Assembly (NCBI GenBank): GCA_018303125.1
Contig: JAGVYS010000003.1
Location: 637-64,636 of the forward strand
DNA length: 64,000 bases
From: Candidatus Woesearchaeota archaeon
GTDB taxonomy: Archaea; Nanobdellota; Nanobdellia; Woesearchaeales; WJIZ01
Reading direction: 5' to 3'
Position 1 is the stretch's first letter; the number at the start of each line of letters is the position of its first letter. The notes below the pieces were generated by a model. It had not been told where the DNA came from and made no database searches. It saw only the letters and a program-made list of their open reading frames with translations. The position numbers and the translations under genes were made by a program. Shown one piece after another: positions 10,416 through 28,800 of the stretch.

Positions 10416-11186
10416 ATGGGTTTCAGGGAAACAGCTATAAGGGCTGCCAAGGAAGCAGGCAAGATTCATCTTAAGTATTTCAGGAAAAAATTTGAGATAA
10501 GATATAAGGCATACAAGCATAATAGGGTAACTATCGCAGATACGGAAGCAGAGAAAAAGATTGTTTCAGAAATAAGGAAAGAGTACCCTTCGCATAATAT
10601 CCTGGCAGAAGAGGCAGAATATCCAAGGACAGGCTCAGAATACCTCTGGGTGATAGACCCTCTTGACGGCACGAACAATTTCAGCAAGGGCATTCCTGTT
10701 TTTTGCGTTTCAATAGCGCTTGCTAAAGATAATGAGCTGATTCTCGGTGTTATCTATGACCCGACAAGAAATGAGCTTTTTGTTGCTGAGAAGGGCAAAG
10801 GCGCATTCCTGAACGGCAAAAGAATAAAGGTTTCAGGAAGCTCACAGCTGCATGACAGCATTCTTCTGACAGGTTTTTACTATGACAGGGGAAAGCCAAT
10901 GTTCTCTACGCTTGCAAGCATGCAGGAATTTTTCCTGAAGGATGTAATAGGCATAAGGTGCACAGGCAGCGCAGCCCTTGATCTCTGCAGCGTAGCTTCC
11001 GGTAGGGTAGATGGCTTCTGGGAATTCAAGCTTAACGCATGGGACTTTGCTGCCGGAAAGCTTCTTGTGGAAGAAGCAAATGGAAAGGTTACCGGCAGGA
11101 AAGGGGAAGGAATTGCAATTGGTGAGTCTTACATAGTCGCATCAAATAAAAAAATCCATGGCAAAATGCTTGATATTCTCAAATAA
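10416..11186 (+). CDS. suhB: inositol monophosphatase / fructose-1,6-bisphosphatase family protein
   Basis: WVIDPLDGTNNF metal-binding motif and the EE...DP.DGT architecture of the IMPase/FBPase family. Confidence 0.85.
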   Translation: MGFRETAIRAAKEAGKIHLKYFRKKFEIRYKAYKHNRVTIADTEAEKKIVSEIRKEYPSHNILAEEAEYPRTGSEYLWVIDPLDGTNNFSKGIPVFCVSIALAKDNELILGVIYDPTRNELFVAEKGKGAFLNGKRIKVSGSSQLHDSILLTGFYYDRGKPMFSTLASMQEFFLKDVIGIRCTGSAALDLCSVASGRVDGFWEFKLNAWDFAAGKLLVEEANGKVTGRKGEGIAIGESYIVASNKKIHGKMLDILK

Positions 11187-11189
11187 TAT

Positions 11190-11230
11190 GCTATTTATTT
11201 TCTATATTAAAAATAATTAAGGAAAAAATA
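11190..11230 (+). repeat. copy 1 of a ~40-bp AT-rich direct repeat (GCTATTTATTTTCTATATTAAAAATAATTAAGGAAAAAA)
   Basis: Near-identical copies at 11730-11770 and 12805-12845, all in the same orientation. Confidence 0.85.
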
Positions 11231-11710: not shown

Positions 11711-11729
11711 GTATTTATATTTATTGTGC

Positions 11730-11770
11730 TGCTATTTACTTTCTATATTGAAAATAATTAAGGAAAAAAA
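11730..11770 (+). repeat. copy 2 of the ~40-bp direct repeat
   Basis: GCTATTTACTTTCTATATTGAAAATAATTAAGGAAAAAAA; lies between the toxin-antitoxin pair and the nucleotidyltransferase/HEPN-like pair. Confidence 0.85.
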
Positions 11771-12364: not shown

Positions 12365-12789
12365 AAGAATTTGGACATTTTATCCGAAGAGGCGACGTGA
12401 AGAAGCAGTCTGTAGATATCAGGTTATCCCAAGCCACTTTCAGGGAAAGCGCGGAAAGGATAGTCCTCGCAGCACACTTGCTTCGCATATCAAAGCCGAA
12501 ATATGCGCTGGAGAATGCATATGAATTAATGAGGGAGGCAGCGGATGCGCTCTTATATGCTGATGGCTATAAGTCTTACTCTCATGAGGCTTCCATAATC
12601 TACCTTCTTGAAAATGATTTTTCTGAGCATGATGTTCTTGAGTTTGACAGGTACAGGAAAATCCGGAACAGCATCAAATAATATGGTGAAAACTGTGGTA
12701 AAGAGGATGCTGAGGCATGCATTACACTTGCAAGAAAAGTCATCTCTAAAATACAGGTTCTTTTGCAGGGCAAAAACAAGCAGGAATAG
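12358..12789 (+). pseudogene. HEPN/KNTase-C-like substrate-binding partner of the MNT, interrupted by an in-frame TAA at 12679-12681
   Basis: The ORF ends ...FDRYRKIRNSIK*. Reading on in frame gives YGENCGKEDAEACITLARKVISKIQVLLQGKNKQE*, which aligns with the C-terminus of the paralog at 49073..49468 (RRLRHNINYYGYKPSLEEVKEVKAIAKSLFEKIK). Confidence 0.55.
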
Positions 12790-12804
12790 GTTGTACATTT
12801 TATT

Positions 12805-12845
12805 GCTATTTTCTTTCTATATTGAAAATAATTAAGGAAAAAAAT
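12805..12845 (+). repeat. copy 3 of the ~40-bp direct repeat
   Basis: GCTATTTTCTTTCTATATTGAAAATAATTAAGGAAAAAAA; sits at the junction with the GC-rich block. Confidence 0.85.
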
Positions 12846-12918
12846 ATTTTTAGAGAAAGATAAAGCATTCAGGAGCTAACCATGTAAGATTAGCTCCTCA
12901 CAAACATCACTGAGTTTT

Positions 12919-13284
12919 TTAGGTGGCGCTTTCGTCCTTAACTAAGCGAATTTCTTCGACTTCCGGAGATGGCGCTGTGTCATCCTGCCAAGTAGCAATG
13001 CAGCCTGCCTCTGCAAATAGAGTAATCCTGCACTCCTCCCCTGTAGCCTTAAACCCGTGCCACACCTCTGCAGGGATAACTAAGACCTGTCCAGCCATAA
13101 TCTTTTCATTCGTTCCGCTCTCTTTAAGGAGATTACATGTTCCTTTCTGCACGGCGAATATTTTGACGCCGTTGTTCTTATGCAGCTCTATCCTCTGCTC
13201 AGGAGTGAGAGTTATGACCTTTACATCAAACCCAGTAAGGCGTGATAACATCTCTGAAACGATTTTCGTTAGTTTGAAACTCAT
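12919..13284 (-). CDS. cupin-domain protein
   Basis: The two-His/Glu cupin region (...GQVLVIPAEVWHGFKATGEE...); GC-rich, first gene of the compositionally distinct block. Confidence 0.6.
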   Translation of the reverse strand: MSFKLTKIVSEMLSRLTGFDVKVITLTPEQRIELHKNNGVKIFAVQKGTCNLLKESGTNEKIMAGQVLVIPAEVWHGFKATGEECRITLFAEAGCIATWQDDTAPSPEVEEIRLVKDESAT

Positions 13285-13561
13285 AAGTACCTCGTTAGGT
13301 TAATCAGCCAGTAACACAAGGTATTCTGGCCAATCGTTTAATGTTGTTGAGCTCATTCCTCCTTGTCCGCCTGTCTTTTTGCCTTTCGGCAAGCATTTTC
13401 AGCCTTTTTCGGCGTGGTGGTTTTTTGAGCCTTTTGTGATTACCATTTCTTTTCCATCTCTCTTTTTTTTCGTGATTTTTCATTGCTTTTTTGTATCCGA
13501 CCCGCACAAGGATGCTACCTCACTGGATAGCAATTAATCCTTGCTGGGGCTGGAGAATTGG

Positions 13562-14464
13562 TTAGACGTCGCAGAGCTTGATTGCCTGTGCGAGTCCCTT
13601 CTTTGCGTCTCCTGTCGGGATGAACTCGTGGCCGACGAAGCCTTTGTAACCGACATCCACAAGGGCTCGCATCACCGCAGGGTAGCTAATCTCTTGTGCA
13701 TTTGGATCCAGTTCCCCTCTTCCCGGGCATCCCGCAGTGTGGACATGGCCAAGCAAGGCAGCGCATTGGCGTATGCGCCGGATGACATCTCCATGCATGA
13801 CTTGGACATGGTAGATGTCAAACAGTAACCGAACCCAAGGGGAATTTACATAGGTGACAATCTCGGCGCAGACAGCAAGATCGTTTCCCCAATATCCTGG
13901 GTGGCCTTTCATTGGGTGAGTGTTGTCACGCGTGTTCAGATGCTCCAAGCACACTACCACCTTTTTTTGCTCAGCGAGAGACACCAGTTTTTTCAAGCCA
14001 ACTACGCACGTTTTGATGCCTTCGGCGACACCGATTTCGTCACCAAGCGGTTCTGTCGGGGAAGTCTCGCTCCCATCGAACTTGCGTCCGTATCCAGTGA
14101 ACACCACCGTAGCCGGAAATCCAGCATCTCCAAGGGATTTGATGTTCTCACCGACCTTCGCGATGAGCGCTTCATGGTTCGCACGGTCGTTCCACCCGCG
14201 CACGAAAGGAGGCTCTTTGTCCTTGATGGCAACAGGCAAACCAATGGCGCAGATCAAGCCATGCTTCTCGAGCACAGGAAAATCCGCAGGCGAAACCAGT
14301 TCTACGCTCTTTGCCCCAAGTCGCTTTGCGTTCTGGCAGAGCTCATCAAGGGTCATTTTTCCATCCCCGGTGAAGCACCACCCAGCAACTGAGTGGTTTA
14401 TCCTGTCTTTGAGTTTTGTTTTTTTATTCATGATGTTTAATGATTTGATTTTTCTCCCAAGCAC
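13562..14464 (-). CDS. xylose-isomerase-like TIM-barrel sugar-phosphate isomerase/epimerase (hydroxypyruvate-isomerase-like)
   Basis: 300-aa TIM-barrel pattern (VCLEHLN, HVHTAGCPGRGELD...GHEFIP); GC ~55-58%. The start could instead be the internal Met at 14431. Confidence 0.7.
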   Translation of the reverse strand: MLGRKIKSLNIMNKKTKLKDRINHSVAGWCFTGDGKMTLDELCQNAKRLGAKSVELVSPADFPVLEKHGLICAIGLPVAIKDKEPPFVRGWNDRANHEALIAKVGENIKSLGDAGFPATVVFTGYGRKFDGSETSPTEPLGDEIGVAEGIKTCVVGLKKLVSLAEQKKVVVCLEHLNTRDNTHPMKGHPGYWGNDLAVCAEIVTYVNSPWVRLLFDIYHVQVMHGDVIRRIRQCAALLGHVHTAGCPGRGELDPNAQEISYPAVMRALVDVGYKGFVGHEFIPTGDAKKGLAQAIKLCDV

Positions 14465-14855
14465 CTTAGCTATTGATGCCTGAGTCTTGGAAAGCCCAAA
14501 CTGATTTGTCCAAGCTATCCGCTTGCCCTCACGCGAATGAGAACAAGTGAGTTGTTAGCAACTCATGGCAACGCCCACTCATGCAGACTTGGGCGTTGTT
14601 GATGAACTGCTTTTGGGTTACCAGCCCGAATAGGTAATATATCTATTGAAACTCTTTTACGAGAATTTTCTGTTGCATTTCTGACATTTTACTTCTGTTG
14701 TGCCTTCCGAGTCACCTTTTAGAGAGACCACAAGGAATTGCGCAGTCAAGCAGCAATCGCACCTGCCGTCTCCCGAAAGGATGTGAATAGTACCATTTCC
14801 ACAGATAAGAATTGGACTAGGTTTTTCGTTCATAACCTCTCCTTTGATACACAGG

Positions 14856-16313
14856 TTATTGTTTTCCGAGACTCTTTCTTATGGCTGTCCAGCCGTCGAA
14901 TCTTTCAACGACCTGAGTGGGAATCCAAGAGGGTTTGATGGGCTTCAGCCTGCAGAGATGCTCCTGAATTTCCCCTACTCCTCTCTTAGTTGCGCTGGCA
15001 AGTGCGGCAATGAGCGCACCCTTGGCACAATTGAAGCCGCTGCCTTCTGCCTTGAGCACCTCTAATTTTCTGCCATTCGCCAGTTGGTATATCAAGCCCT
15101 GGATGATGGAAGAGTTAGCCAAGTCACCTGTAAGGCAGACTTTGGTGATGCCTGCGTCCAGCATAGGGATAGCCCTCTCCCACATCCCGAAGGTAATGGA
15201 CTGAAGGACGCTGATTGCCCAGTCGTTGAGTGCTGCATCCGAAGGCGCGTTGTGGACAGTGAACCCAGTATTAGTGGGCAAAAACCGCTCGAGAAGGGTA
15301 TCATCCAGATAGAAGAATGGCTTGCCACTCATTGCTAGCCTGTCGAGCGTCTTGTCCACATTATCATTGGATTTAGTTTTTGCCTTGATAGCGACTCGCA
15401 TGCACCCCTTGAAGGATGTCCACGCCAAGCCACTGTTGACAAGGATAGTGAGCAGGAAGACCTTGCCGAAGTCGTCGAAACGGTGATACTGGCCATCATG
15501 CGTCCACGAGTCATTGGTTGCAGTGCCAGTTCCTGACGAGCCAAAAGATAGGGTTACGGCATCATTCGGAGAGCCAAGCCCTGTTTTGCCGGAATGGTTG
15601 TCTGCCAGAGGAGAGTGATAAACGCATTGGCTTCCCAATCCAAGTGATCCTGCAAATTCCGTGTTGCAGTTTCCAACAACATTTCCCGTAGCCACCACTT
15701 CTGGAATGATTTCGGGGTTTAGGCCTAGCGCCCTAAAGACCTCTACAGCCACTTTCCCATCCCTGGTGAGGATGTTATTGCACATTCCGTCTGACCTGCT
15801 GAGCACCAACTTGCCTGTCAGCAGATACCCAAGATAGTCCGCAAGAGTGCATATCCATCTGACTTTTTTCCAGACATCCGGCATTTTTTTCGAGAACCAG
15901 TATGCCTTTGCCAGGATCAAGCCAGAATAGACATCGTTTCCTGTAATCCCCCTGATATCTGCTTTTCCCTTAATCTCATCAACCATGTCGGCAGCACGTT
16001 CATCACACCAGAGGACTGCCCCAGCATGCACAGGTGCATAATCGACGTCCAAGAGAACAAGGGAATGTTGAAACTGTCCAACGCACAGGTGTGTTACTGC
16101 CTTGGCTTTTTCCCCAAGAATGCCACGAAGAGTCTCAGCCAATTTTGAGATGTCAAATTCATGTCGCTTCTCAGGGAGGTTTCCCACTTTAGGCGTTGCG
16201 ATTGAAGCGCCATTTGTGAGACCGGTTGTGCTGTCATAGAAGACAGCTGCACAGGATGTTGTGCCGAAATCTATCCCGGCAACAACTCCACTTACATTTA
16301 TTTTCTTTTTCAT
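14856..16313 (-). CDS. FGGY-family carbohydrate kinase (xylulokinase/rhamnulokinase-like)
   Basis: N-terminal VVAGIDFGTTSCAAVFYD (the DxGTT ASKHA motif), 485 aa. Confidence 0.8.
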   Translation of the reverse strand: MKKKINVSGVVAGIDFGTTSCAAVFYDSTTGLTNGASIATPKVGNLPEKRHEFDISKLAETLRGILGEKAKAVTHLCVGQFQHSLVLLDVDYAPVHAGAVLWCDERAADMVDEIKGKADIRGITGNDVYSGLILAKAYWFSKKMPDVWKKVRWICTLADYLGYLLTGKLVLSRSDGMCNNILTRDGKVAVEVFRALGLNPEIIPEVVATGNVVGNCNTEFAGSLGLGSQCVYHSPLADNHSGKTGLGSPNDAVTLSFGSSGTGTATNDSWTHDGQYHRFDDFGKVFLLTILVNSGLAWTSFKGCMRVAIKAKTKSNDNVDKTLDRLAMSGKPFFYLDDTLLERFLPTNTGFTVHNAPSDAALNDWAISVLQSITFGMWERAIPMLDAGITKVCLTGDLANSSIIQGLIYQLANGRKLEVLKAEGSGFNCAKGALIAALASATKRGVGEIQEHLCRLKPIKPSWIPTQVVERFDGWTAIRKSLGKQ

Positions 16314-16413
16314 TTTTATTTTATTTGTTTAAACTGAAGTCCAATCCCTTCCCAGAGGAAAATCTCCCCAGAAGAAATTCCAATGGAAATGGAAAGGGCT
16401 TGGAGGTAATGAT

Positions 16414-17601
16414 TCAATTGATGCTGGAGATGTCCACTTTGGCGCCGCCCTGCTCTGCACTCAACAAGGATGCTTGCAGAACACGTTGAGTGTGCATTGT
16501 GGACTGGATCGTTGCAAAAGTGTCCGTATGCAATGGTTTCTGTCCAGCCACTTTGAGGAGGAATTCCAGCAGCAGGAAGATGAAGGTGTGCTCATACCCG
16601 ATGTTGTGTCCCTCTGGCCAGCAATTACTCACGTAGGGGTGACCCTTTTGAGAAACGTCGATTGTTTTCCAGCCTCGTGTCAGCTTGTTCTCGGTGTAGT
16701 CCACCCAATGCAATTCAGTGAGGCTTTCGAGACTCCATGTCAATCTCCCTTTGGTGCCGTCAATCTCGATGAGATTATCGTTGTTGCTTCCAGCGGACGT
16801 TCGTGTTGCCTCGAACGTGGCAATGAGACCCTTCTTCGATCGGCCATTGAACAACGAGATGTCATCGACATCGCTCGCAAGCGTCTTTGGGACATCTGCT
16901 GATTTTTCGTTCCATTCAGGGTTTGGTCGTTGCTGCCAGACAGTTTGCGTGTAGCCACCGCTCACCGACTCCAACTCGTCCTGACAGAGCAACACGAACA
17001 GGTCGATGATGTGCGCATTGAGATCACCATGCGCACCAGATCCGCAGATGTCTTTCAAGAACCGCCACACCCTTGGGCAACTTTCGTCACCCCATTGCTG
17101 GAGATATTTAGCGCGGAAGCGCAGGATTTTCCCAATCAATGTGATGAACTGCAACAGGGCGAATACCACTGCAGGGGTAAAGCGGTAATTGTGCCAGACC
17201 GCATTATGCACTCCTTTATCGGAGGCAGTTTTCGCTGCCTGAACCATCCGGCTAGCCCCTTGCAGGGTGTTTGAGAGGGGCTTCTCTGTCAATGTGTGCT
17301 TTCCTACCTCCAAAGCACTCACAGCGATGTCTGCGTGGCTGTCGTTGGAGGTTGCAACGTCCACCAGATGAATTTCAGCGTTGTCGAAGACATACTTCGG
17401 ATCGGTTGTCCAATTCTGCCATCCCTGTTCTCTAGCGAACTTTTCAACCGCATCTTCTCTTCGTCCCACCACCGTGTGGAGGACTACTTCGAATGGCGTT
17501 TCTTCTGGGAAAAAATACCCGACTTGCCGAAGCGCATTACTATGCGCCCGTCCCATAAAACCGTGACCATACATGGCCACATTTAGTTTAGGTTTACTCA
17601 T
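16414..17601 (-). CDS. Gfo/Idh/MocA-family NAD(P)-dependent oxidoreductase
   Basis: N-terminal Rossmann region (LNVAMYGHGFMGRAHSNAL) plus a C-terminal alpha/beta domain, 395 aa. Confidence 0.75.
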   Translation of the reverse strand: MSKPKLNVAMYGHGFMGRAHSNALRQVGYFFPEETPFEVVLHTVVGRREDAVEKFAREQGWQNWTTDPKYVFDNAEIHLVDVATSNDSHADIAVSALEVGKHTLTEKPLSNTLQGASRMVQAAKTASDKGVHNAVWHNYRFTPAVVFALLQFITLIGKILRFRAKYLQQWGDESCPRVWRFLKDICGSGAHGDLNAHIIDLFVLLCQDELESVSGGYTQTVWQQRPNPEWNEKSADVPKTLASDVDDISLFNGRSKKGLIATFEATRTSAGSNNDNLIEIDGTKGRLTWSLESLTELHWVDYTENKLTRGWKTIDVSQKGHPYVSNCWPEGHNIGYEHTFIFLLLEFLLKVAGQKPLHTDTFATIQSTMHTQRVLQASLLSAEQGGAKVDISSIN

Positions 17602-17956
17602 GGATTAGTTGTCTTTCTTCCCGGAATTGTTTTTTCTGAGAAGCCCATCACGTGTTTGGGCCTTAATTGCTTTCCAAGATGTTCCGGGTTGCCATCAAGA
17701 AAAGCAATCATATCCTCCTTCAAACAGGAAGGAGAAATTTCAGCATAGCTGCTGAAGGCAGCACACTCCAATGAAGCAAGTGGGCTGTTATTCAACATCT
17801 AATTGCCAGCCATGGGACGCACTCACAGCCTGTAAGTGCACGACCATCCCAAAACAATATGGTCTATCCCATGCTGGCAAAGTTAATGCTCGCCATATTC
17901 ATCCCTTTGCCTTATGGCAGCGTTTGGCTTAGGGAATCCTATGGCTGGCCGATTGT

Positions 17957-19042
17957 TCAGTTATTCTTGGCCATGGCCTCTTGATGTGAGATACCAGAAG
18001 TGAAGAGGATGTTGCTTCTGGCATGGCGTCCTGCGACCACGGCGGCGTTATCTTCGTCTTTGTCACTTGTTAAATGCAACGCTAGCATTTTTCCGTCCTC
18101 GTGCTCAAGCGCAACTTCATCGAAACTGAACTCTCCTTCTCTGAGAGCGACCTGGACGTCTCGATAATCTCCGTCACTCCAATGCAGAGAGATGTACTCG
18201 TCACCCCTTCTTCCACTCGGGTCGTCCAAGTGATGAGGAGAGTGTGTCGAACGAACACCGCCGTGCTGGCACTTCGCACCCTTTAGGTGTTCAGCATCGA
18301 TTGACCCGGGCGCTTCCTCGTTGATGAACCGTACACCATCGCCATTCAGCATGCCCTGTTTGATGAAATGAGAGTGGTCATAGAGGTACCCAAACCCATC
18401 ATCTGCCACAGCTTTGTGCAACTCAACTGCACTGTAGGGTTCCCACGCAGATTCTCCCTTATGAATTTCCAACCTGGCCTTCTTGATTCCGTGGGCCTTG
18501 AAGATACCAACAGCTTGCCGAATGCGGCCAGCTTCCCAATCCAAGCGAGACTTCCGTTCATCATCTGGCAGACCAGGGAACTCACGAAGTGAATCTTCGT
18601 AGATGGACGAGCCGCAGAACCAATTGATCTTGGTGATTCCAGCGGCCTGACAGCCAGCGGCGATGAGCTGGATTTCATCCATGGTAGCAGCCTGAATGGC
18701 TTGGGCATCAGGCTTTCCATTGGCCTCTTTCCACATGTGGACAGGCAGAAATTGCTTGAAGCCACTGTGAATCGATGTCGCATTCAGGCACATCGTGATA
18801 GGGTGTACGCTGACGCTGAGAACAGCAAGCTCGCCAACAGTTCCTTTCCATTCGTCTAGGCATTCCTTTCCACTCCTCTGGCCATTACCATTGACGAAAT
18901 GGTGGTATGGGAAGTGATCCCGTCCAGGTTGGATGCCATCAAAAACCAAGTTGCCGTCCGGCATCTTTGTTCGCCTGAGCTTGCTAACTAACTCAGCGAG
19001 AGTCCATGCAGCGAACTGCAATGATACTAGTGTGAATTTCAT
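17957..19042 (-). CDS. xylose-isomerase-like TIM-barrel protein (putative), possibly secreted
   Basis: 361 aa, GC-rich, hydrophobic N-terminus (MKFTLVSLQFAAWTLA); resembles sugar-phosphate isomerase/epimerase family proteins. Confidence 0.5.
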   Translation of the reverse strand: MKFTLVSLQFAAWTLAELVSKLRRTKMPDGNLVFDGIQPGRDHFPYHHFVNGNGQRSGKECLDEWKGTVGELAVLSVSVHPITMCLNATSIHSGFKQFLPVHMWKEANGKPDAQAIQAATMDEIQLIAAGCQAAGITKINWFCGSSIYEDSLREFPGLPDDERKSRLDWEAGRIRQAVGIFKAHGIKKARLEIHKGESAWEPYSAVELHKAVADDGFGYLYDHSHFIKQGMLNGDGVRFINEEAPGSIDAEHLKGAKCQHGGVRSTHSPHHLDDPSGRRGDEYISLHWSDGDYRDVQVALREGEFSFDEVALEHEDGKMLALHLTSDKDEDNAAVVAGRHARSNILFTSGISHQEAMAKNN

Positions 19043-19425
19043 AGTTTTGCTTTCCTTCTAGACAATATTGCAGACAACCTTTAGCCTTTTTCCTTTTTTA
19101 GCTTTAGTTGCCCCTACAAACTCTTTTCAGAGAACCGCCAGTTGTCTCTTCAGGCAGTTTTTGATCCACTCCCACATGCATAATGGGACTGGTAATTTTT
19201 CCGAGTGATTTCTCGAATTTTGCGAGTTTATTCTCGACGCCTTCAAACAAAGACGATTTTATCCATCTCATTCGAGACAGACTTTTTCAGTGTGTAACCA
19301 CTGAAGGCAGCCCTCAGATAATAGAGGCCAAGTAGGCATACTTTCTAAGGGCTGTTGTTCGGGGGTTAATTTAGTTACTTCTCCGAGCACCATTTCTGGT
19401 GAGTGGACTTATTATCGGATGTGGA

Positions 19426-20568
19426 TCAGGCAGCAACCTTCCACATTGCCTCGATGTTGGTGATGGAGAATCTGGCGTAGCCGATCGGATCCGCCCCAAA
19501 ATGGTGCAGATCATGTTCGGCGAACACCGTTTCACCATCCCATTGCCGCAAGATTTTGACAGCTTTTGCCAGATCCTCGGTGATCGTTGGTGAACCATCA
19601 CCTACTGCGAGGTCCCAATCCATCAGGACGGGCACATCAGCGGCGTGGACTTCTTTGCCGAGCAGTTGCTCCAGATTGACTGGCAGCATCTGACCTGAGT
19701 TGACATGCACGAACCCATCGAACAGACCTGCCTCATTGGTTCGCCTGGTGCCGTCCTCGACAGTTATGCCAGATGCCAACAGATGAGCCCATTCGTTATT
19801 GAGCCACAGACCCTTCCAGCCAAGCTCCTTGTTAACCTCGTTGCAGAACTTGATTGCCAACGCCAGCGTCGGGATGATATCGAGGACAGGGTCTCCAGGT
19901 TTGAACTCAATGTGCATCTTCCGTTCATGGCCTGTTTCGGTCTTCACCCGGCGCAGGACATTGACGATTCCGTCTCTTAGTTGACCCCACTTCTTCGATT
20001 TTGGAATCAATTCATTGGAAACCATGAGGTCCTTAGGGATGTTTTTGATGGGATTCCCATCTCCTGCCGGCCAGATGATGGTTTTTCCCTCTCCAAGCCC
20101 CTTCTCCTCGAACTCCAGTGCCAATGACACGGCCTCCACATGAAGATCCTCCGCCATCTGCCGACGATTGGCGTCAGGATGGAAGAACGCACCGAGCTCC
20201 GTCCCTGGATAGCCAAATGCAGGCGCAGTGAACGCCAACACTTTCGGGAAACGCCCAGAACGGATTCCCTTGACTAGGTTATCCTTGCCGATCGCGCCGG
20301 GCTTGTCAATGAGCTCGGAATACTGTGGTTGAGATGTTCTGATTTCCAATCCGATATGGAAGCTTGATCTCAGTTCGAGGCCAAGCTCTTCTCCAAGCGA
20401 CTTCACCTCCTTCAGACGGTCACTTACCTTGACGTAACCAGCTTTTGGATCACCTCCGCCGAACTTGAAGTTTGCAGGTCGTGGGTTTACGACCCATGAG
20501 GGCACTGAATGAATGATTTGCTTTGACATTGCTTTATCTCCTAAAGGAGCTCTTTTCCAGCCCTTCAT
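19426..20568 (-). CDS. xylose-isomerase / L-rhamnose-isomerase-like TIM-barrel sugar isomerase
   Basis: 380 aa; HIEFKPGDP resembles the xylose isomerase FAIEPKPNEP metal-site motif. Confidence 0.65.
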   Translation of the reverse strand: MKGWKRAPLGDKAMSKQIIHSVPSWVVNPRPANFKFGGGDPKAGYVKVSDRLKEVKSLGEELGLELRSSFHIGLEIRTSQPQYSELIDKPGAIGKDNLVKGIRSGRFPKVLAFTAPAFGYPGTELGAFFHPDANRRQMAEDLHVEAVSLALEFEEKGLGEGKTIIWPAGDGNPIKNIPKDLMVSNELIPKSKKWGQLRDGIVNVLRRVKTETGHERKMHIEFKPGDPVLDIIPTLALAIKFCNEVNKELGWKGLWLNNEWAHLLASGITVEDGTRRTNEAGLFDGFVHVNSGQMLPVNLEQLLGKEVHAADVPVLMDWDLAVGDGSPTITEDLAKAVKILRQWDGETVFAEHDLHHFGADPIGYARFSITNIEAMWKVAA

Positions 20569-20848
20569 ATGTTAAGGCCGTTCTGATCCAGCTCCACATA
20601 AGACCAGAGAGATTTATCGATAACCTCTTTAGAGGGAATGATGCCAAATCCCACAAAGCATCATTTTTTCACAGCAGCTCTCGAGTTGAGGCTGTCTTAG
20701 AAGAACATTCCAATGTTCTTCCGTTGTGCTTACAAGCACACGTCCTCCCACCTTGGTAGATAGGAGGAAGCGTGACTGCAAACGAAACAAAGGTAGCTCT
20801 CCGAACTAACTTTCAAAGAGAAAATCCTTTGTTTTACGTTACCGCCAA

Positions 20849-21847
20849 TCACGTAGCCAGCGGGAACTTCCTGTTGAACTTCCGCATAGCTTTGACGCAA
20901 GTCTCCGATTGCTCACGGGCATTTGGATTGAAGCACAAATCCATTGCTCGCCAGTCATAACCCTCGGGCAGACCAGTGAAGAACTCTTCGGCAGCCGGAA
21001 ACAACTTGTCGAATTTCAGAATGCCTGCGCCGAATTCATCGTGAGTAGAGGTTCCTGGACCATTCGGAGACTCTCGGTGTAGTTCCCCCTTGGTGTCAAT
21101 CCAGTGGACGTGCTTCACAAACGGACCGATTTCACGCATGAACCCAATCTGTTCCTCGCCTTTTGTGTTGGTGTGATCTTTTGCGAAGGTGTCGATTTCG
21201 CCGATCTGTTCTGCACCCATGCAACCTACGGTGTGGCCGTGACAAGTGTCATACAGTGAACCAACATTTTTGACGCCGGCATCTGAGAGGGCCTTGTGAA
21301 ACCTCACCACATCACGTGGTTTATTGATACCAAACATTGGCTCAAACTCAATGACGATTGTGAGGCCTTCGTTTCCGGCAATTTCCCCAAAGCGCTTGAA
21401 TCTTTTGACATAGACCTCAATTGCACCTTCGACACCAATACCTTGCGGGCCATAGATACGGCTCGGAGGATCGATGAAGTCCATGCGCATACGCGGCGTA
21501 TTTAATCCGCCTTTGCCGCACCATTTGGCGTTTTTGATCACTGCGCTCTCGAGACGGTCAGTGTCGCTGAAGAAGCTGAGATCCTGATTCCAGAAATCAC
21601 CGGCGACCCCGCTTATTGTCATGCCGTGTTCTTCCAGCAAGGCCAAGAACAAAGCAATGGATGTAGTGCTTCCGCAGTTATTCGGATCTGGGTGTGGACC
21701 CTTCCCAAAGAGTTCAACCCCGTCGAACCCGAGCCCGTGCTTTTTCCCGAGGAACTTGATTATGGAAACAATGTCCATTTGTTGGGTCTTCAAGAACAAA
21801 AAGGCCCATAGCCCCATAGATATGCGATAGTTAGGCTTTTTAGCCAT
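20849..21847 (-). CDS. sugar-phosphate isomerase/epimerase (xylose-isomerase-like TIM barrel)
   Basis: 332 aa with the GxELF, IEFEP and HWID features of the family. Confidence 0.65.
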   Translation of the reverse strand: MAKKPNYRISMGLWAFLFLKTQQMDIVSIIKFLGKKHGLGFDGVELFGKGPHPDPNNCGSTTSIALFLALLEEHGMTISGVAGDFWNQDLSFFSDTDRLESAVIKNAKWCGKGGLNTPRMRMDFIDPPSRIYGPQGIGVEGAIEVYVKRFKRFGEIAGNEGLTIVIEFEPMFGINKPRDVVRFHKALSDAGVKNVGSLYDTCHGHTVGCMGAEQIGEIDTFAKDHTNTKGEEQIGFMREIGPFVKHVHWIDTKGELHRESPNGPGTSTHDEFGAGILKFDKLFPAAEEFFTGLPEGYDWRAMDLCFNPNAREQSETCVKAMRKFNRKFPLAT

Positions 21848-22284
21848 AGTTTACCTCATTTATTACGTTGTTTTTTTCTTTCCCAGATTTTTAGTTATTA
21901 ACTCATTATGTACTTGAGCCTTTCATTGCCCTGACCCAGGAAGTTAAACAGGGCAAGAAATTGAATTTGGAGCCGCCGCCTAAACAGTTAACCCCCAAAG
22001 GTTAATCAATGCACATATGTCAGGGGCGGCTCCAAAGCTGGTGAGGGGCGAGCACAAAACACCTCATTGAACGGGGTGCTTTAGTAACCTATGTGCCCGC
22101 CGCCTCGAAATTAGTGGAGTCACAACCAAGCCTTACTCATAAGTTCCCGTGTATGGTTCAGCCTAGCTATGACCCCAAAAAAGAGTGAGGAGCCGCGTGG
22201 CTTAGCCGCCTTCATCATTCTTCCTTTGGGGAACTGGTAAGAAGAACGAATTCTGCTCTAATGGAGAGCACGGCTCCTCGAAAA

Positions 22285-22362
22285 TGGTGCACCCGGCGAG
22301 GCTCGAACTCGCAACCAGCTCGCTTAAAAGGCGGCTGCTCTTCTAAATTGAGCTACGGGCGC
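22285..22362 (-). tRNA. bacterial-type tRNA-Lys(UUU)-like gene with encoded CCA and a 1-nt bulge in the anticodon stem (possible pseudo-tRNA)
   Basis: Reverse complement: GCGCCCG TA GCTC AATTTAGAA GAGC A GCCGC CTTTTAA GCG(A)GC TGGTT GCGAG TTCGAGC CTCGC CGGGTGC A CCA. Acceptor stem, D-arm and T-arm pair cleanly; the variable loop TGGTT resembles bacterial tRNA-Lys; an extra A disrupts the 3' anticodon stem. GC-rich, unlike the host tRNAs. Confidence 0.6.
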
Positions 22363-23828
22363 ATTAAAAATGGAGGGATGTAGGTCTAATAGACGCACTT
22401 CAAAAGCAATTCGTGCTTGAGCAACGCAATTGCCTTTTTAGCTCGCGGATGAGTACATCCCTCAAAAGGGCAAAGGAAAAACAGGGGAGATACAGGCGAC
22501 AAGTGCCTTCAGAGGAATCTGGGCTCCGACCTCCAGATAACTCCTTCGCTTTACCAGCACAACCCCCAGAAAGCCAAAAAGTGGAACCGTAGTGTGAGGC
22601 TGGTCAAAGAAGCATACTGGGGATATGCTCTTATTCCATTAACACCACGGCTCCACAGAAAGTAAATTGCCGGCCGCAGCTTATTTTCCAAAATAAGCGT
22701 GGATTTTTATGGTGTGGAACCATGAAAGTATCCACTTCTGCGACCGACAAAATGAAGGTAGCCCACCTGTCCACGTTTCTTATCCCCATGTTAAAGATAT
22801 CCTCGTCGGACAGTGGGCTACTAGAAAACAGCTAGCCAATATCCCCCAGTTACGCCGATCTCGGAGACGGCTGCAAAAGTAAAACCCGCATGACTTTTTC
22901 CCTCTCCTTGGTTGCCCCTAGCACCTGTCATGCGGGTTGTGGATTGATGGCAGCCTGGCCAGCCCTTACACCAAACCAAGGATATGGCTTTACCTCGATT
23001 TTTAAGAGCCGGCACAGGCTGCAAATTGACAGTCTGCATGAGTTTGCTGAGCCCTCTTCCTGAGCCTCATGCAGACTGTAGGTAGCCAAGCCATGTCTCC
23101 CTTTTGCATCGCCCATGATATCCTCCTATTTGGAGAAATGGCCGGCTGCCATAAATTCAAATTGTAGCCTAAATGATCCTGCCTCCTTTCCAAAAAGCAG
23201 CATATCACCCTACCATTTAGGCTACGTGGAAGCAACACCACTAGCGCCCGCGCAGAGAACTTCCCTTGCAAGGGCAGTGCTGCCGAATTCTAGAACCTCC
23301 TTAAGAGTTCTGAGACTATTAATACCCGCCCCCTACTGCCACAACAGAATCTAGGGTGTTCCTAGTTGTCTCCTTTACACCCTTTCTGTTTGTGATATGC
23401 ACTGCTGAAAGCAGTACCCATATGACGATTATTATGGTCACAATTTCTTCTCCAAGGGTTGATTCTTGAAGCTATGCCTCCCACCCGTTAAAAAAGCACA
23501 GCCATGAACCTCCAGCTCCTTCCATGAGAAATTTTGGAGAAGTAGGAAATTCATTTGTTCTGAAAGAAAGCTACAGCTACACAAATTGATAGTTTTTGCT
23601 TCCTGAAAAACAGCAACTTGCCATTTTTCGCCCTTTTCCGCTTCTATGCTCTAAAAATCAAGGTTGCGTGGAAACACGTTTCTTTTCGAAAACAACCTTT
23701 TGTTTTTGAGCTAGCGTATCAGAATTCCCATTCCATAAAATTCCCTATATTAAGTGGAATCACAGGATGAAAATCCCGAAGGGTAGGTTATCAAACCATC
23801 AAGGCGATAGCCAAATCAAAAAATAAAT

Positions 23829-25637
23829 TTATGAACATGATATCAAGTCAAGCAGCTTCTTTCCTTTCTCTGTTAGGAAAATTACCTTTCTTATTCCGTT
23901 GCTGCTCTTCTCAGTCTCAACCCCTATTAGCTCCATTACGATGAAGTCATTTCTATATTGGTTGCATTTCCTTATGGAAATATCGCGAAGCTTTGAATAA
24001 AGCTCTGTTGTTGCCATCTTTCCTTTTTTCAGCTTCTTCAGGAAATCAAGGCTTCCGTCATTGTATTCTATGTAATTCTTTATGTTTTCTGTCTTGCGGG
24101 CATCCTCAATCTCCTTTTTCATCCTCTCATCATAGGGCAGGTCGGAGTAATCCTCCAAAGTATGCACTCCTGATGCATTTACAGTTGCTTTCAGCTTTGC
24201 AACCTCTATGCTCAATTTTCTTACCTTTACAGAATCATTGAATATCTTCAGCCTCTTGCCATCCTTCAGCTTTGACTCCATTCTTGCCTTTATGGCCTCA
24301 TCTTCTACATGGACATCCGAACGAGCAAGCGGCACCTTCACAAGGAAAGGCAGGTAATGCCTTTCTGAAAGCCTTACTATTGCCTGCCCGACAGGTATCA
24401 TGGAGAAATACTTGCTGTTTTCCCTTATCTGCATCAGCCTTGATATGGTCTCTACATCATTCGGCAAAATCTGCTGGAAAGCAATTGTTGTTGCGGAATT
24501 TCCGATAACAGTTTCTGATAATTTGGAGATATGCTGGTCAAGGCATATCATGCCTATGCCATATTCCCTTATTTCACGGTAAATCATGTCCGTTACAGAC
24601 TCATTGAGAAAATTTGTCCTGTTCCTTAGGAATATGTTATGCGCCTCATCCACCATTATCGCGCTGCTGAAACCAGAGGAAGATGGAGAGGATTTTTTCA
24701 TCTTGTATATGTAAGCAAGCAGGAATTCGCAGAAAAACTTCTTTTCAGGATTGTTCAGGCTGTGAAGCTCGAACAGCACTCTTTTGGAAAGCAACTCATC
24801 TATGCTTACCTCATACTGGCCACGGTAATTTATCGTTTCACCGAAATGTCCGAAAGTAAGAACATGCGCTATCCTTATGGCAGATGTCACCCATTCTGCC
24901 TCCCTTCCATGCTTAAGCCTCTGCCCCTCTGCCCTGCCCTCAAGCCTGTCCATTATGTTATACCATGTCGGGTAATTATCAGAGCCCTTATACACTCCAA
25001 AGTCACGGAAGGCCTCGTTAAGGACATCAGAAAGCAGCTTATGCACACCATAGCTCGCAAAGAAGCTTTCGGTTATCAAGTCACAAAGCATGTTAAGCCA
25101 TTCTTTTGGGTCAATCCCTTTCGGAGGCCTGTTTATGTTTATCCTGAAAAGATTCGCAATTTTTGAGTTTCCGACGGTAAAGCACAGCATTTCCTCATCC
25201 TCAAGCAAAAGCGGCCTGAAGCTCTTCTTCCAGTCAAAAATCCAGAAATTCTTCCCCTTCTCCATGAACTGCCTCGCTATTACGAAGCCAAGATTGGTTT
25301 TTCCTGAGCCTGACATGCCTGAAATGCATACGTGCCTTATCCATTCTTTCTCCCTGAGCCCGAATGGGTAGAACTCCTTGTCTGCATAAGTAACAGTTCC
25401 AAGTCTGTATTCTCCAGCAACAGCGCTTTTCTCAGGTGGCTCAAGCAGGACTTTTTCAGAAAGAAGGTGAGTATTGAGATGTTTTTCATAAAGAATCTTG
25501 AGGGCATGTTCCATCTCCAGCCTTTCATCATTGCTCTGGGAAAGGGCAAACTTTAGGTAAATCCTGTCTATTTTCTCGCCCAATACAGGACGCAGCCTTC
25601 TGCATATCTCTTCAGCGGTAAGTTCTCTCATATTCAC
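23829..25637 (-). CDS. HerA/FtsK-like P-loop ATPase (DUF87-type) with a C-terminal winged-helix region
   Basis: Walker A GMSGSGKTNL and Walker B IMVDEAHNIF; 602 aa; low GC, host-like. Confidence 0.7.
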   Translation of the reverse strand: MNMRELTAEEICRRLRPVLGEKIDRIYLKFALSQSNDERLEMEHALKILYEKHLNTHLLSEKVLLEPPEKSAVAGEYRLGTVTYADKEFYPFGLREKEWIRHVCISGMSGSGKTNLGFVIARQFMEKGKNFWIFDWKKSFRPLLLEDEEMLCFTVGNSKIANLFRININRPPKGIDPKEWLNMLCDLITESFFASYGVHKLLSDVLNEAFRDFGVYKGSDNYPTWYNIMDRLEGRAEGQRLKHGREAEWVTSAIRIAHVLTFGHFGETINYRGQYEVSIDELLSKRVLFELHSLNNPEKKFFCEFLLAYIYKMKKSSPSSSGFSSAIMVDEAHNIFLRNRTNFLNESVTDMIYREIREYGIGMICLDQHISKLSETVIGNSATTIAFQQILPNDVETISRLMQIRENSKYFSMIPVGQAIVRLSERHYLPFLVKVPLARSDVHVEDEAIKARMESKLKDGKRLKIFNDSVKVRKLSIEVAKLKATVNASGVHTLEDYSDLPYDERMKKEIEDARKTENIKNYIEYNDGSLDFLKKLKKGKMATTELYSKLRDISIRKCNQYRNDFIVMELIGVETEKSSNGIRKVIFLTEKGKKLLDLISCS

Positions 25638-26059
25638 TTAGAAAGTATGTCGCCCAGCAATGAAGCCCTGCTTTCCTTCTCCCTCATTTCCTGGATAATC
25701 TCTCTCATCTCTTTTTTAAGCAGTGCTATGTCCCTGAAGCAATTCAGTTTTTCCTGTACCTTGATCTCCTCTGCGTCTATGAGCTTCTTCCTGAACTCAA
25801 CAATCGCCCTCTGCAATTCCGCTGATGCATAATTATCAGGCGGCATCATGTTGCTTATGGCGTTTTTCATCTTCTCAATGTCAGAAAGCATCTCAGAATG
25901 AAGCTTTTCCCTTACCTTTATCTGCTCACTTATCTCATCAACAGCTTCCCTTAAGGAAGCCATCTTTGTTTCAGATATGCTGTCAAGGAGCATTTCTGCG
26001 GAATTGCCTTTATTCTCAAGCTCATCCAGCATATTTTTGAATAGTTTTGACTCTTCCAA
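25634..26059 (-). CDS. coiled-coil protein, co-operonic partner of the HerA-like ATPase
   Basis: 141 aa rich in E/K/L heptads; 4-nt overlap with the ATPase start. Confidence 0.5.
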   Translation of the reverse strand: MEESKLFKNMLDELENKGNSAEMLLDSISETKMASLREAVDEISEQIKVREKLHSEMLSDIEKMKNAISNMMPPDNYASAELQRAIVEFRKKLIDAEEIKVQEKLNCFRDIALLKKEMREIIQEMREKESRASLLGDILSK

Positions 26060-26159: not shown

Positions 26160-27560
26160 ATGTTTTTTATGGCAAAACCCGCGATTTTTGACTTCATATC
26201 ACCGCTTGATTACAGGTACTATGGCAGCATACCTGAAATAAAGGATTACCTTTCAGAATCCTCTTTTATTGTATACCTTGGAAAATTTGAGGCCTCGCTT
26301 GCAAAATGCCTGGCAAGAAGGAAGCTCTGCCCTGATTCTGTTGCCGCAGAGATAGAAAAGGCATCCAGAGCAGTATCTGCAGAGGAAGTGTATGAGGAAG
26401 AAGAAAGGATAAGGCATAACATAAGGGCCTTGGCTAACACAATAAGAAAGAAGGTAAGCGATGAAGCAAAGCCATATGTTCATCTTTCTGCAACGAGCCA
26501 TGACGCAATATGCTCTGCCGATGCTGCAAGGTTCAGGGATTTTGCAAATAAGTCACTAATAAAGGTCCTTCTTTCCCTTGAATCAACTCTGATAAAGATA
26601 GCGATGCAGGAAAAAGCTACATTGCAGATAGGCAGGACCCATGGCCAGCATGCAGAGCCTATAACATTCGGCTTTGCTGTTGCGCAGTATGTCTCAAGGC
26701 TTGGAAAAAGGATATTGCTGATACAAAAAACAGCAAATGACCTTAGGGGCAAGCTTGCTGGTGCGGTCGGCGCCTATAATGCGCCTTCCCTGATTATCAA
26801 GGACTCTGAGGCATTTGAGGAAGAAGTTTTGGCTGAGCTTGGAATAAAGCCATCCCCCATATCAACGCAGGTTGTTGAAGCCGAGTACATGGCTGATTTT
26901 GTACATGCGGTGATAAGCTGCTTTGGAGTTCTTGCAAACATTTCAGATGACATGCGCCACCTGCAAAGGTCGGAAATCTCAGAAATAAGGGAGCAGTTCG
27001 GGAATGACCAGGTTGGCAGTTCCACAATGCCACACAAGATGAACCCCATAAATTTTGAGAACGTCAAATCAATGTGGAAGGAGTTCATGCCAAGGATGTC
27101 TACGCTCTACCTTGACCAGATATCCGAGCACCAAAGAGATTTAACAAATTCAGCATCTTCAAGATTTGTGCCTGAGATTCTTGCTGCCCTTTACCTTTCC
27201 GCAGCAAGGCTTGACAAGACTTTGTCAAAAATCGAAGTAAATTCCTCTGCCTTGAAGAAAAACTTTGATTCAGGAAAGGACATGATTACCGCAGAGCCTC
27301 TCTATGTGCTTCTTTCCTCAAAGGGCCATCCTGATGCGCATGAGCACGCAAGAAAATTATCCTTGAAATCAAGGGAAATCAAGGAAAGCATCTATTCTCT
27401 TGCAATGAAGGACAAGGAGCTTGAGCCTTACATGAAAAAGCTAACAAAAGAACAGCTGGAAATATTGAAGAGTCCTGAAAAATATACTGGCATTGCCGAG
27501 AAAAAAACTGTTTCCATATGCGAGGAATGGGAAGAGAAGATTAAGGATATTTCTGTATAG
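26160..27560 (+). CDS. purB: adenylosuccinate lyase
   Basis: Lyase signature SSTMPHKMNPINFEN and an N-terminal ISPLDYRYYG; 466 aa. The real start may be the Met at 26169. Confidence 0.9.
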   Translation: MFFMAKPAIFDFISPLDYRYYGSIPEIKDYLSESSFIVYLGKFEASLAKCLARRKLCPDSVAAEIEKASRAVSAEEVYEEEERIRHNIRALANTIRKKVSDEAKPYVHLSATSHDAICSADAARFRDFANKSLIKVLLSLESTLIKIAMQEKATLQIGRTHGQHAEPITFGFAVAQYVSRLGKRILLIQKTANDLRGKLAGAVGAYNAPSLIIKDSEAFEEEVLAELGIKPSPISTQVVEAEYMADFVHAVISCFGVLANISDDMRHLQRSEISEIREQFGNDQVGSSTMPHKMNPINFENVKSMWKEFMPRMSTLYLDQISEHQRDLTNSASSRFVPEILAALYLSAARLDKTLSKIEVNSSALKKNFDSGKDMITAEPLYVLLSSKGHPDAHEHARKLSLKSREIKESIYSLAMKDKELEPYMKKLTKEQLEILKSPEKYTGIAEKKTVSICEEWEEKIKDISV

Positions 27561-27561: not shown

Positions 27562-28800
27562 TTAAACTGCTCGGGTTAATAGTGGTCTGTCCGGTATATC
27601 TAAGAGTGGCCTATAAGGTATGCCCTTTTTCAAGCGAGATTGTCTAGTACTAACAATTTTATCACCCTCTCCTTGATACATATTAAAAACTTCTGAGTTA
27701 TGCACATTTACACCTCTATTTATGCCATCCAGCAATCCTCTCAATGCCATTATTGATTCCATATACAGTGAGCCTGTGAAGCCACCATATTTTCCCTGGT
27801 GCTGTCTATGCGGCTCAAGTACTAAAGGTACAAGGCCATCCAATCCTAATCCTTTTAACTTTCTTCTTATCCTAGGGATTATCTGCGTGAACTCTGCAAG
27901 AATGACCTGGTAGTTGCTATCTCCTTGTCCTGCAGGAGAATGCGGCCACTCTGCAGTCTCGATACTTTCTCCATTTTTAATAGCATAATCAGATGGTGCA
28001 TCCTTTATGTGAAGCCCAGCTAAAAATTGTTTTAGTTCACGAAAACTTTGCAATGCAGCATTTTCACGTTTATTCTGCCTGACATCATTTGCACCATCAT
28101 GATACGCAAAAAACTTTAAGCCATCAGGATTACCAGTAATATCCTCTATAATCTGCCTCAAGGTATATCCAGTATTCCCGAACAATCCTGTTTCATTCTC
28201 AAGAAATCCGACCAAGCCGGCTCTTTTTAAGTCTCGCCCGACATACCTTAAGAGAGCAATAGCATCCCTGTACTGTTCATTTCTATTGGCAGCCATAGGA
28301 TTTTCTCTCGTTCCTGGATAAAACGAGAACATTCTTATTATTCTTGTATCCAGTGCATTTGCTGCCCTCACAACTCCGTTCGTAACTTTAGCAATATCTG
28401 AAACTGATGCCGCTCCAATCCATTGTTTTCCTAATGGGGAACCAACATCATTAGCTTTCACGCCATAATCCTTTGCCATGTCTGCATACCTTTGAAGACT
28501 TTTTTTGGGTGCATTAGAAACATTATACACAACTTGAGAATCACTAAGCTCACCGAGCTTTTTTCTATACTCTTCTGTCGGTAAATTATCAAAATGCTCT
28601 AATTTTGCCCTATCAACAAAGCTGAAAAATCTCGCAGAAAGCTCAAGGCCATGTTTAGCAAGAAATTCAAAGTGCTCTTTTGCATGCAGAGAATACTCAT
28701 CACCAAAAGCAACTATCTTCACTACAGGTTCTGGCTGATATGTCATTTTCCAGAAAACGCATCCGAGCGTGTATAAATACTTTTTCAAAATAACTACCAT
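27562..28800 (-). CDS. hypothetical protein, possibly a xylose-isomerase-like TIM-barrel fold
   Basis: 412-aa ORF with low host-like GC; KIVAFGDEY...EHFEFLAKHGLE resembles TIM-barrel isomerase N-termini. The start may be the internal MTYQPEP at 28746. Confidence 0.45.
   Translation of the reverse strand: MVVILKKYLYTLGCVFWKMTYQPEPVVKIVAFGDEYSLHAKEHFEFLAKHGLELSARFFSFVDRAKLEHFDNLPTEEYRKKLGELSDSQVVYNVSNAPKKSLQRYADMAKDYGVKANDVGSPLGKQWIGAASVSDIAKVTNGVVRAANALDTRIIRMFSFYPGTRENPMAANRNEQYRDAIALLRYVGRDLKRAGLVGFLENETGLFGNTGYTLRQIIEDITGNPDGLKFFAYHDGANDVRQNKRENAALQSFRELKQFLAGLHIKDAPSDYAIKNGESIETAEWPHSPAGQGDSNYQVILAEFTQIIPRIRRKLKGLGLDGLVPLVLEPHRQHQGKYGGFTGSLYMESIMALRGLLDGINRGVNVHNSEVFNMYQGEGDKIVSTRQSRLKKGIPYRPLLDIPDRPLLTRAV

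Follow-up and report, generated by a model that had tools for sequence, protein, structure and literature searches.

A little-ameliorated catabolic gene island with long structured spacers, probably acquired horizontally, in a Woesearchaeota chromosome

A 64,000-nucleotide stretch of DNA from a Candidatus Woesearchaeota archaeon (GenBank assembly GCA_018303125.1, contig JAGVYS010000003.1, positions 637 to 64,636 of the forward strand; hereafter the window) contains a block of seven protein-coding genes, one tRNA-like gene and long non-coding segments that is foreign in composition to its host. The block is an insertion relative to a syntenic relative, and its junctions are real. We conclude that the region from 12.9 or 13.5 kb to about 23.3 kb is very probably an island of catabolic genes that arrived by horizontal transfer, has been little ameliorated and occupies a variable site between suhB and purB; its genes look like a 3-keto-type sugar-conversion module with a bacterial-type repertoire from an unsampled donor. 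An earlier note on this DNA had proposed either such an acquired island or a chimeric assembly, and the island is borne out by guanine-plus-cytosine (GC) content, tetranucleotide and dinucleotide profiles, codon usage and absence from the syntenic relative. The block sits within the nucleotide-biosynthesis neighbourhood of a Woesearchaeota (DPANN) chromosome, in the gene order carA, carB, pyrG, purE, purC, suhB, a ParE toxin-antitoxin pair, an MNT/HEPN-like pair, the block, a HerA/FtsK-like ATPase with a 141-aa partner, and purB. Split archaeal RNA polymerase genes B''/B'/A'/A'' and intron-bearing tRNAs are also present in the window. In two database sources, its proteins carry the name Candidatus Woesearchaeota archaeon and the locus tag J4401.

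In 1-kb windows, the GC content is 0.34–0.46 in the flanks and 0.48–0.52 in the block (13 to 23 kb), with individual peaks up to 0.56 in 300-nt windows. A maximum-likelihood fit with two change points (log-likelihood gain 84) places the edges at 13,500 and 23,340; between them the GC content is 0.498, and beyond them it is 0.427. The rise that the earlier note had described, from 38–40% in the flanks to 50–58% in the block, is therefore real but smaller, and the 60-mers quoted as examples of it (14041–14100 and 11161–11220) are not representative. The GC content of the six core genes is 0.50–0.53 and that of the block genes together is 0.507, whereas 40 genes in the flanks have 0.428 ± 0.024; the excess is seen at each of the three codon positions. 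The tetranucleotide correlation to the host is 0.64 for the block and 0.52 for its core, whereas host chunks of equal size reach at least 0.95, and the dinucleotide distance delta* is 122 for the block against a host maximum of 50. Codon choice differs in the same way: the share of AGG/AGA among arginine codons falls from 91% in the host to 37% in the island and that of CGN rises from 9% to 65%, while among isoleucine codons ATA falls from 63% to 10% and ATC rises from 13% to 63%. The block is thus non-host in the GC, tetranucleotide and codon-usage profiles alike, the measures that the earlier note had named, and the non-coding DNA of the island is compositionally foreign as well. Since the composition of the cupin gene is intermediate (GC 0.464, mixed codon usage), the left edge is placed somewhere within 12,900–13,500. 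The unameliorated composition suggests that the island arrived recently.

The gene order around the block is conserved in another Woesearchaeota genome, GCA_018221205.1, which was found through SuhB homologues and has the order carA-carB-pyrG-purE-(NUDIX)-purC-suhB-(NDK, 184 aa)-purB, with amino-acid identities to the window of 53–71% across carA to suhB and purB. The gap between suhB and purB is 1.77 kb in this relative and 15 kb in the window, and the relative lacks every island gene. Since a second relative also differs downstream of suhB, where it has a nucleotidyltransferase-type module and many small open reading frames (ORFs), the spot is variable in this lineage. Both edges of the block are spanned by a 65-kb ENA contig (ERZ27254754) as well as by the contig of the NCBI metagenome-assembled genome (MAG), and in ERZ27254845 the left junction is found on one contig and the right flank on another, with a match of more than 99.97%. 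The three assemblies differ by one to three single-nucleotide polymorphisms and a 2-nt homopolymer indel, indicating that they are separate assemblies of slightly different populations. The first ERZ27254845 contig ends at 21,886 and the next begins at 22,917, inside the block; inverted repeats, low coverage or local strain variation could be the cause of this break. An exact look-up of PurB returned island-bearing contigs only and no island-free variant of the same population, and a 1.3-kb contig from another project stops inside suhB.

The seven genes on one strand that the earlier note had reported are confirmed as intact ORFs of the minus strand, and the cupin, FGGY kinase and Gfo/Idh/MocA genes match Pfam Cupin_2, FGGY_N and the Gfo N- and C-terminal domains, respectively. 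Of the four xylose-isomerase-like TIM barrels that it had listed, two are firm (here called TIM1 and TIM3), one is marginal (TIM2) and one, p380, is unsupported (Table 1). On profile matches, five of the proteins can thus be assigned to families. TIM1 resembles hydroxypyruvate/2-oxo-tetronate isomerases (PDB 3ngf, E 3e-16). Its PDB matches are generic PF01261 members only, namely 3ngf, YgbM and psicose/tagatose epimerases, and its NCBIfam matches are partial and far below the cutoffs. The dehydrogenase matches PDB 4h3v with 248 bits over nearly its full length (query residues 5–377) and the levoglucosan dehydrogenase (LGDH) structure 6a3f with 185 bits over residues 5–352. The kinase is nearest to xylulokinases, scoring 118 bits on the XylB model TIGR01312 against a cutoff of 380. 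TIM2 shows 23% identity (E 2e-4) to the TIM protein encoded beside a planctomycete homologue of the dehydrogenase. The start codon of p380 is probably the ATG at 20529 behind an AGGAG motif, giving 367 aa; a single-sequence AlphaFold model of this protein has a pLDDT of 35 and is unusable, leaving the fold unconfirmed. No PDB chain was matched by sequence by TIM2, TIM3 or p380, TIM3 has no match in NCBIfam or plasmids either, and no paralogy is detectable among the TIM-barrel genes of the island.

The affinities of these proteins are mosaic and distant. Among 5.8 billion protein clusters, the kinase matches only itself; its best non-self match among 1.84 billion representatives has 28% identity and 92 bits, and the names of its distant matches are uninformative. 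The best matches of the dehydrogenase among the same 5.8 billion clusters form a flat plateau at 42–46% identity, and all of the named ones (Planctomycetota, Phycisphaerae and Lentisphaerae) belong to bacteria of the Planctomycetes–Verrucomicrobia–Chlamydiae (PVC) group, except the Woesearchaeota cluster of the query itself. Its closest homologue with a readable context is a planctomycete gene (locus L004) at 44% identity, with a PF01261 gene, an MFS permease and a 3-keto-disaccharide hydrolase as neighbours. The best plasmid matches of TIM1 are from Bacteroidota at 38–40% identity, the top one (39.5%) lying on Hymenobacter volaticus plasmid NZ_CP095062.1 in a cluster with a Gfo/Idh/MocA gene, four TIM-barrel genes, a permease and a DUF1080 gene. 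TIM2 has only partial plasmid matches at 26–31% identity, and p380 has no match in plasmids or JGI metagenome contigs. No donor is identifiable in these collections, and the donor lineage is unsampled. These affinities support a bacterial-type (PVC/Bacteroidota) repertoire, and a bacterial donor is plausible. The bacterial donor favoured in the earlier note thus gains support from the dehydrogenase and TIM1; for the kinase, p380 and TIM3 there is no homologue that would inform on the source, and TIM2 has only the partial matches. The contrast that it had drawn between a foreign repertoire and the surrounding housekeeping genes is not clean, because the host PurB and SuhB are bacterial-like themselves.

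The enzyme set suggests a route in which the levoglucosan-dehydrogenase-like NAD enzyme would oxidise a sugar, anhydrosugar or glycoside to a 3-keto intermediate, the PF01261 TIM-barrel enzymes, perhaps aided by the cupin, would carry out elimination, hydration or isomerisation of the oxidised product, and the FGGY kinase would phosphorylate the resulting product. Both the substrate and the order of these reactions are tentative. In the bacterial LGDH route, the 3-keto intermediate formed by such a dehydrogenase undergoes elimination and hydration by several proteins of family PF01261 (PMC7676230, PMC10066097). The pentose or rare-sugar utilisation suggested in the earlier note is supported in part: a classical pentose operon matches the set less well than a 3-keto-sugar route of oxidation, elimination and hydration does. 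Equivalogs of XylB and XylA, as in xylA-xylB xylose utilisation, are lacking: the TIGR01312 score of the kinase lies far below its cutoff, and TIGR02631 gives 18.7 bits against a cutoff of 447. Bacterial levoglucosan-dehydrogenase loci (lgdA, lgdB1, lgdB2/B3, lgdC) share with the island the two families Gfo/Idh/MocA and PF01261. However, the island dehydrogenase is only a distant homologue, a second Gfo/Idh/MocA protein (LgdC) and an ABC transporter are missing from the island, and the FGGY kinase and the cupin are extra. No chain named Lgd was found among the PDB matches of the island TIM proteins and p380, the presence of Lgd chains in PDB not having been checked. Close counterparts are also the 3-keto-glycoside clusters of Planctomycetota and Bacteroidota with a Gfo gene and multiple TIM-barrel genes (L004 and NZ_CP095062.1), which have the same family repertoire as the island and contain the closest homologues of its Gfo protein and TIM1. 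Those clusters are tight operons with gaps of 8–60 nt (L004, L095), whereas the long island spacers measure 277–437 nt, and they carry an MFS/nucleoside-type permease and a DUF1080 (PF06439) 3-keto-disaccharide hydrolase, both of which are absent from the island.

The non-coding parts of the island have a feature absent from the earlier note, which is RNA structure. Fold energies were compared with those of dinucleotide shuffles and expressed as z-scores, using 100 or 200 shuffles in the tool and 25 shuffles in our own runs. In our own runs, the six long spacers have z-scores of −4.2 to −8.4 and the four parts of the ORF-free stretch −2.7 to −6.2. The plus strand is usually much weaker than the minus strand in the structured segments, which points to G-U pairs and hence to RNA. 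Eight of nine tested host intergenic regions lie between −1.8 and +0.5, and the ninth, 12682–12918 (minus strand), which borders the left edge of the island, has a z-score of −4.2. Windows with a z-score of −3 or below make up 10 of 44 in the island and 2 of 211 elsewhere in the window (Fisher p 5e-7), compared with 2–4% at three unrelated loci. In the non-coding DNA of the island, the minus strand contains 5.1 perfect hairpins (9 bp or longer) per kb and the plus strand 1.9, against a density of 0.8 per kb outside the island. Thus, the spacers are structured at the RNA level. Each long spacer contains four to seven differing hairpins, and no shared repeat of the type known as repetitive extragenic palindromic sequences or bacterial interspersed mosaic elements (REP/BIME) was found in the spacers, a single 12-mer recurring three times. 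With Rfam 15, no spacer matches at the gathering score, and between 21700 and 24000 only the tRNA model is matched at E ≤ 5. Neither sigma-70 promoters nor intrinsic terminators are enriched over shuffles. The ORF-free stretch described in the earlier note is confirmed, in that 21848–23828 contains no ORF longer than 89 aa, and a six-frame search detected no Pfam remnant of a decayed gene in it; the part from 22363 to 23400 is a candidate structured leader or non-coding RNA.

Stable sense-strand hairpins between cistrons are also known from the intercistronic stem-loops, REP/BIME elements and RNase III punctuation sites of bacterial and phage operons. The island spacers differ from these in being several hundred nucleotides long, in having differing hairpins without a shared repeat and in that the same texture extends into a 1.5-kb gene-free leader. 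Transcription of the minus strand probably runs through this long structured leader including the tRNA-like element, with the genes co-transcribed, and the hairpin region at the left edge would be the probable end of the transcript. Stable hairpins in each intercistronic spacer could then serve in protection, punctuation or processing of the transcript. A speculative extension, which we consider unlikely but worth stating, is that the non-coding 40% of the island consists of sense-strand structured RNA modules, namely the multi-hairpin spacers and a leader of about 1.5 kb with a tRNA-like processing handle, that travel with the genes and let a foreign operon be expressed, punctuated or stabilised in a DPANN host, which would be an undescribed operon architecture.

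The tRNA-Lys-like gene reported in the earlier note is present within the non-coding DNA upstream of TIM3, and its anticodon loop CUUUUAA corresponds to Lys(UUU). The call of Leu(taa) by ARAGORN was rejected as an artefact of the bulged anticodon stem. The gene does not encode a canonical elongator tRNA-Lys: the D-loop AAUUUAGAA lacks the GG of G18G19, the anticodon stem needs a bulged A in the alignment, and there is a G3:U70 pair, which is an alanine-type identity mark. The unusual D-arm pattern is absent from JGI contigs. The genome has two genes of the tRNA-Lys(UUU) type, the island copy and a host copy at 45955–46042 (minus strand), which carries an intron; host tRNAs have no encoded CCA, and CCA-encoding tRNA genes are more typical of bacteria and phages. 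By these features the island gene is of foreign type; it may not function as a tRNA but instead serve as a processing handle or be a decayed passenger.

Table 1. Features of the island and its edges, from left to right; z is the fold energy relative to dinucleotide shuffles
Feature	Positions	Strand	Observations
Left edge	12797–12898	−	45-nt repeat copy at 12797–12844 (minus strand begins T7); 11-bp hairpin at 12871–12898 just downstream of the cupin stop
Cupin, 121 aa	12919–13284	−	Pfam Cupin_2, 31 bits
Structured spacer, 277 nt	13285–13561	−	z −4.2 on minus, −0.7 on plus strand
TIM1, xylose-isomerase-like TIM barrel, 300 aa (289 aa in ENA call)	13562–14464	−	PF01261, 69 bits
Structured spacer, 391 nt	14465–14855	−	z −4.2 on minus, −1.4 on plus strand
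FGGY-family sugar kinase, 485 aa, orphan-like	14856–16313	−	FGGY_N, 85 bits
Short spacer, 100 nt	16314–16413	−	One hairpin; z −1.9
Gfo/Idh/MocA dehydrogenase, 395 aa, levoglucosan-dehydrogenase-like	16414–17601	−	Pfam N- and C-terminal domains
Structured spacer, 355 nt	17602–17956	−	z −5.8 (tool, 100 shuffles); own 25 shuffles, −7.6 on minus, −4.1 on plus strand
TIM2, divergent TIM-barrel-like protein, 361 aa	17957–19042	−	PF01261, 28.8 bits (cutoff 31.1)
Structured spacer, 383 nt	19043–19425	−	z −6.8 on minus, −0.6 on plus strand
p380, 380 aa	19426–20568	−	No Pfam match; weak NCBIfam xylA_Arthro match, E 7e-4
Structured spacer, 280 nt	20569–20848	−	z −6.8 (200 shuffles); plus strand weaker
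TIM3, xylose-isomerase-like TIM barrel, 332 aa	20849–21847	−	PF01261, 66 bits
Structured spacer between tRNA-like gene and TIM3, 437 nt	21848–22284	−	Minimum free energy (MFE) −167.9 kcal/mol; z −8.05 on minus, −3.1 on plus strand
tRNA-Lys(UUU)-like gene	22285–22362	−	Rfam, 51.3 bits; CCA encoded, no intron
GC-rich, ORF-free, hairpin-dense stretch	22363–23400	−	z −6.2, −5.5 and −2.7 for thirds; MFE −443 kcal/mol for 1118 nt
AT-richer transition to host DNA	23401–23828	−	GC 0.39; z −4.6; TTAATATA motif near 23,750, a putative promoter

An assembly chimera, in which a higher-GC fragment was mis-joined into an archaeal contig, would explain the abrupt shift in composition, and the ERZ27254845 assembly does break within the ORF-free stretch. 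However, this break lies inside the block and not at its edges, host pur genes on both sides would demand two independent mis-joins, and the left end of the block abuts a host-type repeat. Moreover, the NCBI MAG and the 65-kb ENA contig have the same junctions, and both the left junction and the right flank recur in the second ENA sample, so that the block is recovered in three assemblies; the chimera that the earlier note had left as an alternative is highly improbable. It is also improbable, if somewhat less so, that the block is a native, vertically inherited cluster that owes its odd composition to selection on expression level or RNA structure and was lost in the relative. Divergent proteins, as fast-evolving DPANN proteins often are, the lack of mobility genes in the block and a host PF01261 protein of host composition beside purB are in keeping with such a history. 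It is opposed by the qualitatively different codon choice (CGN instead of AGG, ATC instead of ATA), by the foreign composition of the non-coding DNA, by a tRNA-like gene of non-host type with an encoded CCA and no intron, by the named dehydrogenase matches, which are all bacterial except the query's own cluster, and by the absence of any trace of the cluster in the syntenic relative.

The third alternative accepts that the block is foreign and differs in its source: an unsampled archaeon, or a plasmid- or virus-like element among DPANN archaea or their hosts, may have acquired the bacterial-type genes earlier and passed them on. We regard this as possible, although not the likelier course. It would account for the mosaic affinities (the Gfo protein to PVC bacteria with 44% identity, TIM1 to Bacteroidota with 39.5%, the others to none), for long spacers unlike the tight bacterial operons with gaps of 8–60 bp and for the lack of an excess of sigma-70 promoters and intrinsic terminators; the insertion spot also holds toxin-antitoxin and HerA-like genes of defence or mobility type, and the region downstream of suhB is variable in another relative. 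On the other hand, the block contains no virus or plasmid hallmark gene, neither the HerA-like protein nor the 45-nt repeat has a viral contig match, and a CCA-encoding tRNA-like gene is more in line with bacteria and phages.

Several observations weigh against the reading of the block as a recently acquired sugar-conversion island. Judged by composition the island arrived recently, but the protein matches reach no more than 46% identity in the collections searched (5.8 billion protein clusters for the kinase and the dehydrogenase, 1.84 billion representatives for the kinase, JGI metagenome contigs and plasmids for p380), and unameliorated composition without close homologues is an unusual combination. 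The syntenic comparison is with a single, distant relative, in which loss is formally possible. No integrase, recombinase or transposase was detected in any ORF or in six frames of the ORF-free stretch, and there is neither an att-type repeat joining the edges nor an interrupted host tRNA. As for function, the dehydrogenase scores 234 bits on the NCBIfam LGDH model NF052479 against an equivalog cutoff of 650, so that it is a family member and not an equivalog; three of the seven proteins have no assignable specific function, and no transporter is encoded among the genes of the block (12.9–23.8 kb). Finally, no homologous copy of a spacer was found, hence the RNA structure is without covariation support.

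The acquired island resembles classical tRNA-linked catabolic genomic islands in its atypical composition, accessory catabolic genes, absence from a relative, variable spot and tRNA-type gene. It differs from them in lacking an integrase and flanking direct repeats, and its tRNA-like gene lies inside the block and is foreign and aberrant, not a host tRNA serving as the attachment site. It is thus a known kind of event in an atypical form: the proteins are orphan-like, machinery for mobility is lacking, and the spacers and leader are long and structured. Bacterial-type genes in DPANN archaea are well documented (for example PMC8204110 and PMC7414124), and the island as such is one more example. 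Its fresh composition without a close database relative points to a donor gene pool unsampled by metagenomics. The spacers and leader, uniformly long and dense in hairpins on one strand, resemble neither bacterial operons nor host intergenic DNA; if they are functional, they could reveal how an operon transferred into another domain of life comes to be expressed or stabilised there. With this enzyme set, a metabolically poor symbiont may be able to use an anhydro- or keto-sugar.

The host DNA next to the block has features of its own. A 45-nt AT-rich repeat, TGCTATTTnCTTTCTATATTGAAAATAATTAAGGAAAAAA, occurs in three copies in one orientation (plus strand) at 11182–11229, 11723–11770 and 12797–12844, where none is expected by chance. 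The copies bracket the ParE toxin-antitoxin and MNT/HEPN-like pairs, the third abuts the left edge of the island, and there is none at the right edge; the repeat is absent from viral contigs and from all other loci examined. It may act as a bidirectional terminator/promoter module or as a site for the recombination of cassettes, and the bracketing of modules by its copies suggests repeated insertion or recombination at this spot. On the other side of the block, 23829–26059 (minus strand) encodes the HerA/FtsK-like ATPase, which has weak matches to CedD, mad8, TraC and TraD, and its 141-aa coiled-coil-like partner. Both genes are of host composition and are missing from the syntenic relative, and they may form a defence or DNA-translocation module at the same variable spot; their codons, like those of the toxin-antitoxin genes, are host-like. 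The HerA-like protein has no match in viral contigs.

PurB (26160–27560, plus strand) has as its best match, at 53% identity, a protein from a purD-purK-purE-purB-purC contig binned as Halanaerobiaceae, and it is at most 39% identical to other archaeal PurB proteins in the species-genome collection. A PurB search of 185,579 species genomes, which carries no synteny information, found no near relative of the host. SuhB (10416–11186, plus strand) is 57–63% identical to Omnitrophota proteins. Directly after purB lies the further xylose-isomerase-like PF01261 TIM-barrel gene (27562–28800, minus strand; 412 aa, 394 aa in the ENA call), which has host-type codon usage and no relatedness to the TIM genes of the island. 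Elsewhere in the window, a 909-aa ORF at 33764–36493 (minus strand) joins a glycine-cleavage T-protein domain (GCV_T) to a serine hydroxymethyltransferase domain, an unusual fusion in one-carbon metabolism. A 612-aa protein without a Pfam domain (52788–54626, minus strand) is, at 78% identity, the best-conserved protein common to the window and the Woesearchaeota relative, and it heads a conserved run of four small genes of 166–198 aa at 50512–52712 (minus strand). Just upstream of purE, at 7719–7720, the window has T7 where both ENA assemblies have T5, and this homopolymer difference shifts the predicted start of purE, giving 231 aa versus 259 aa.

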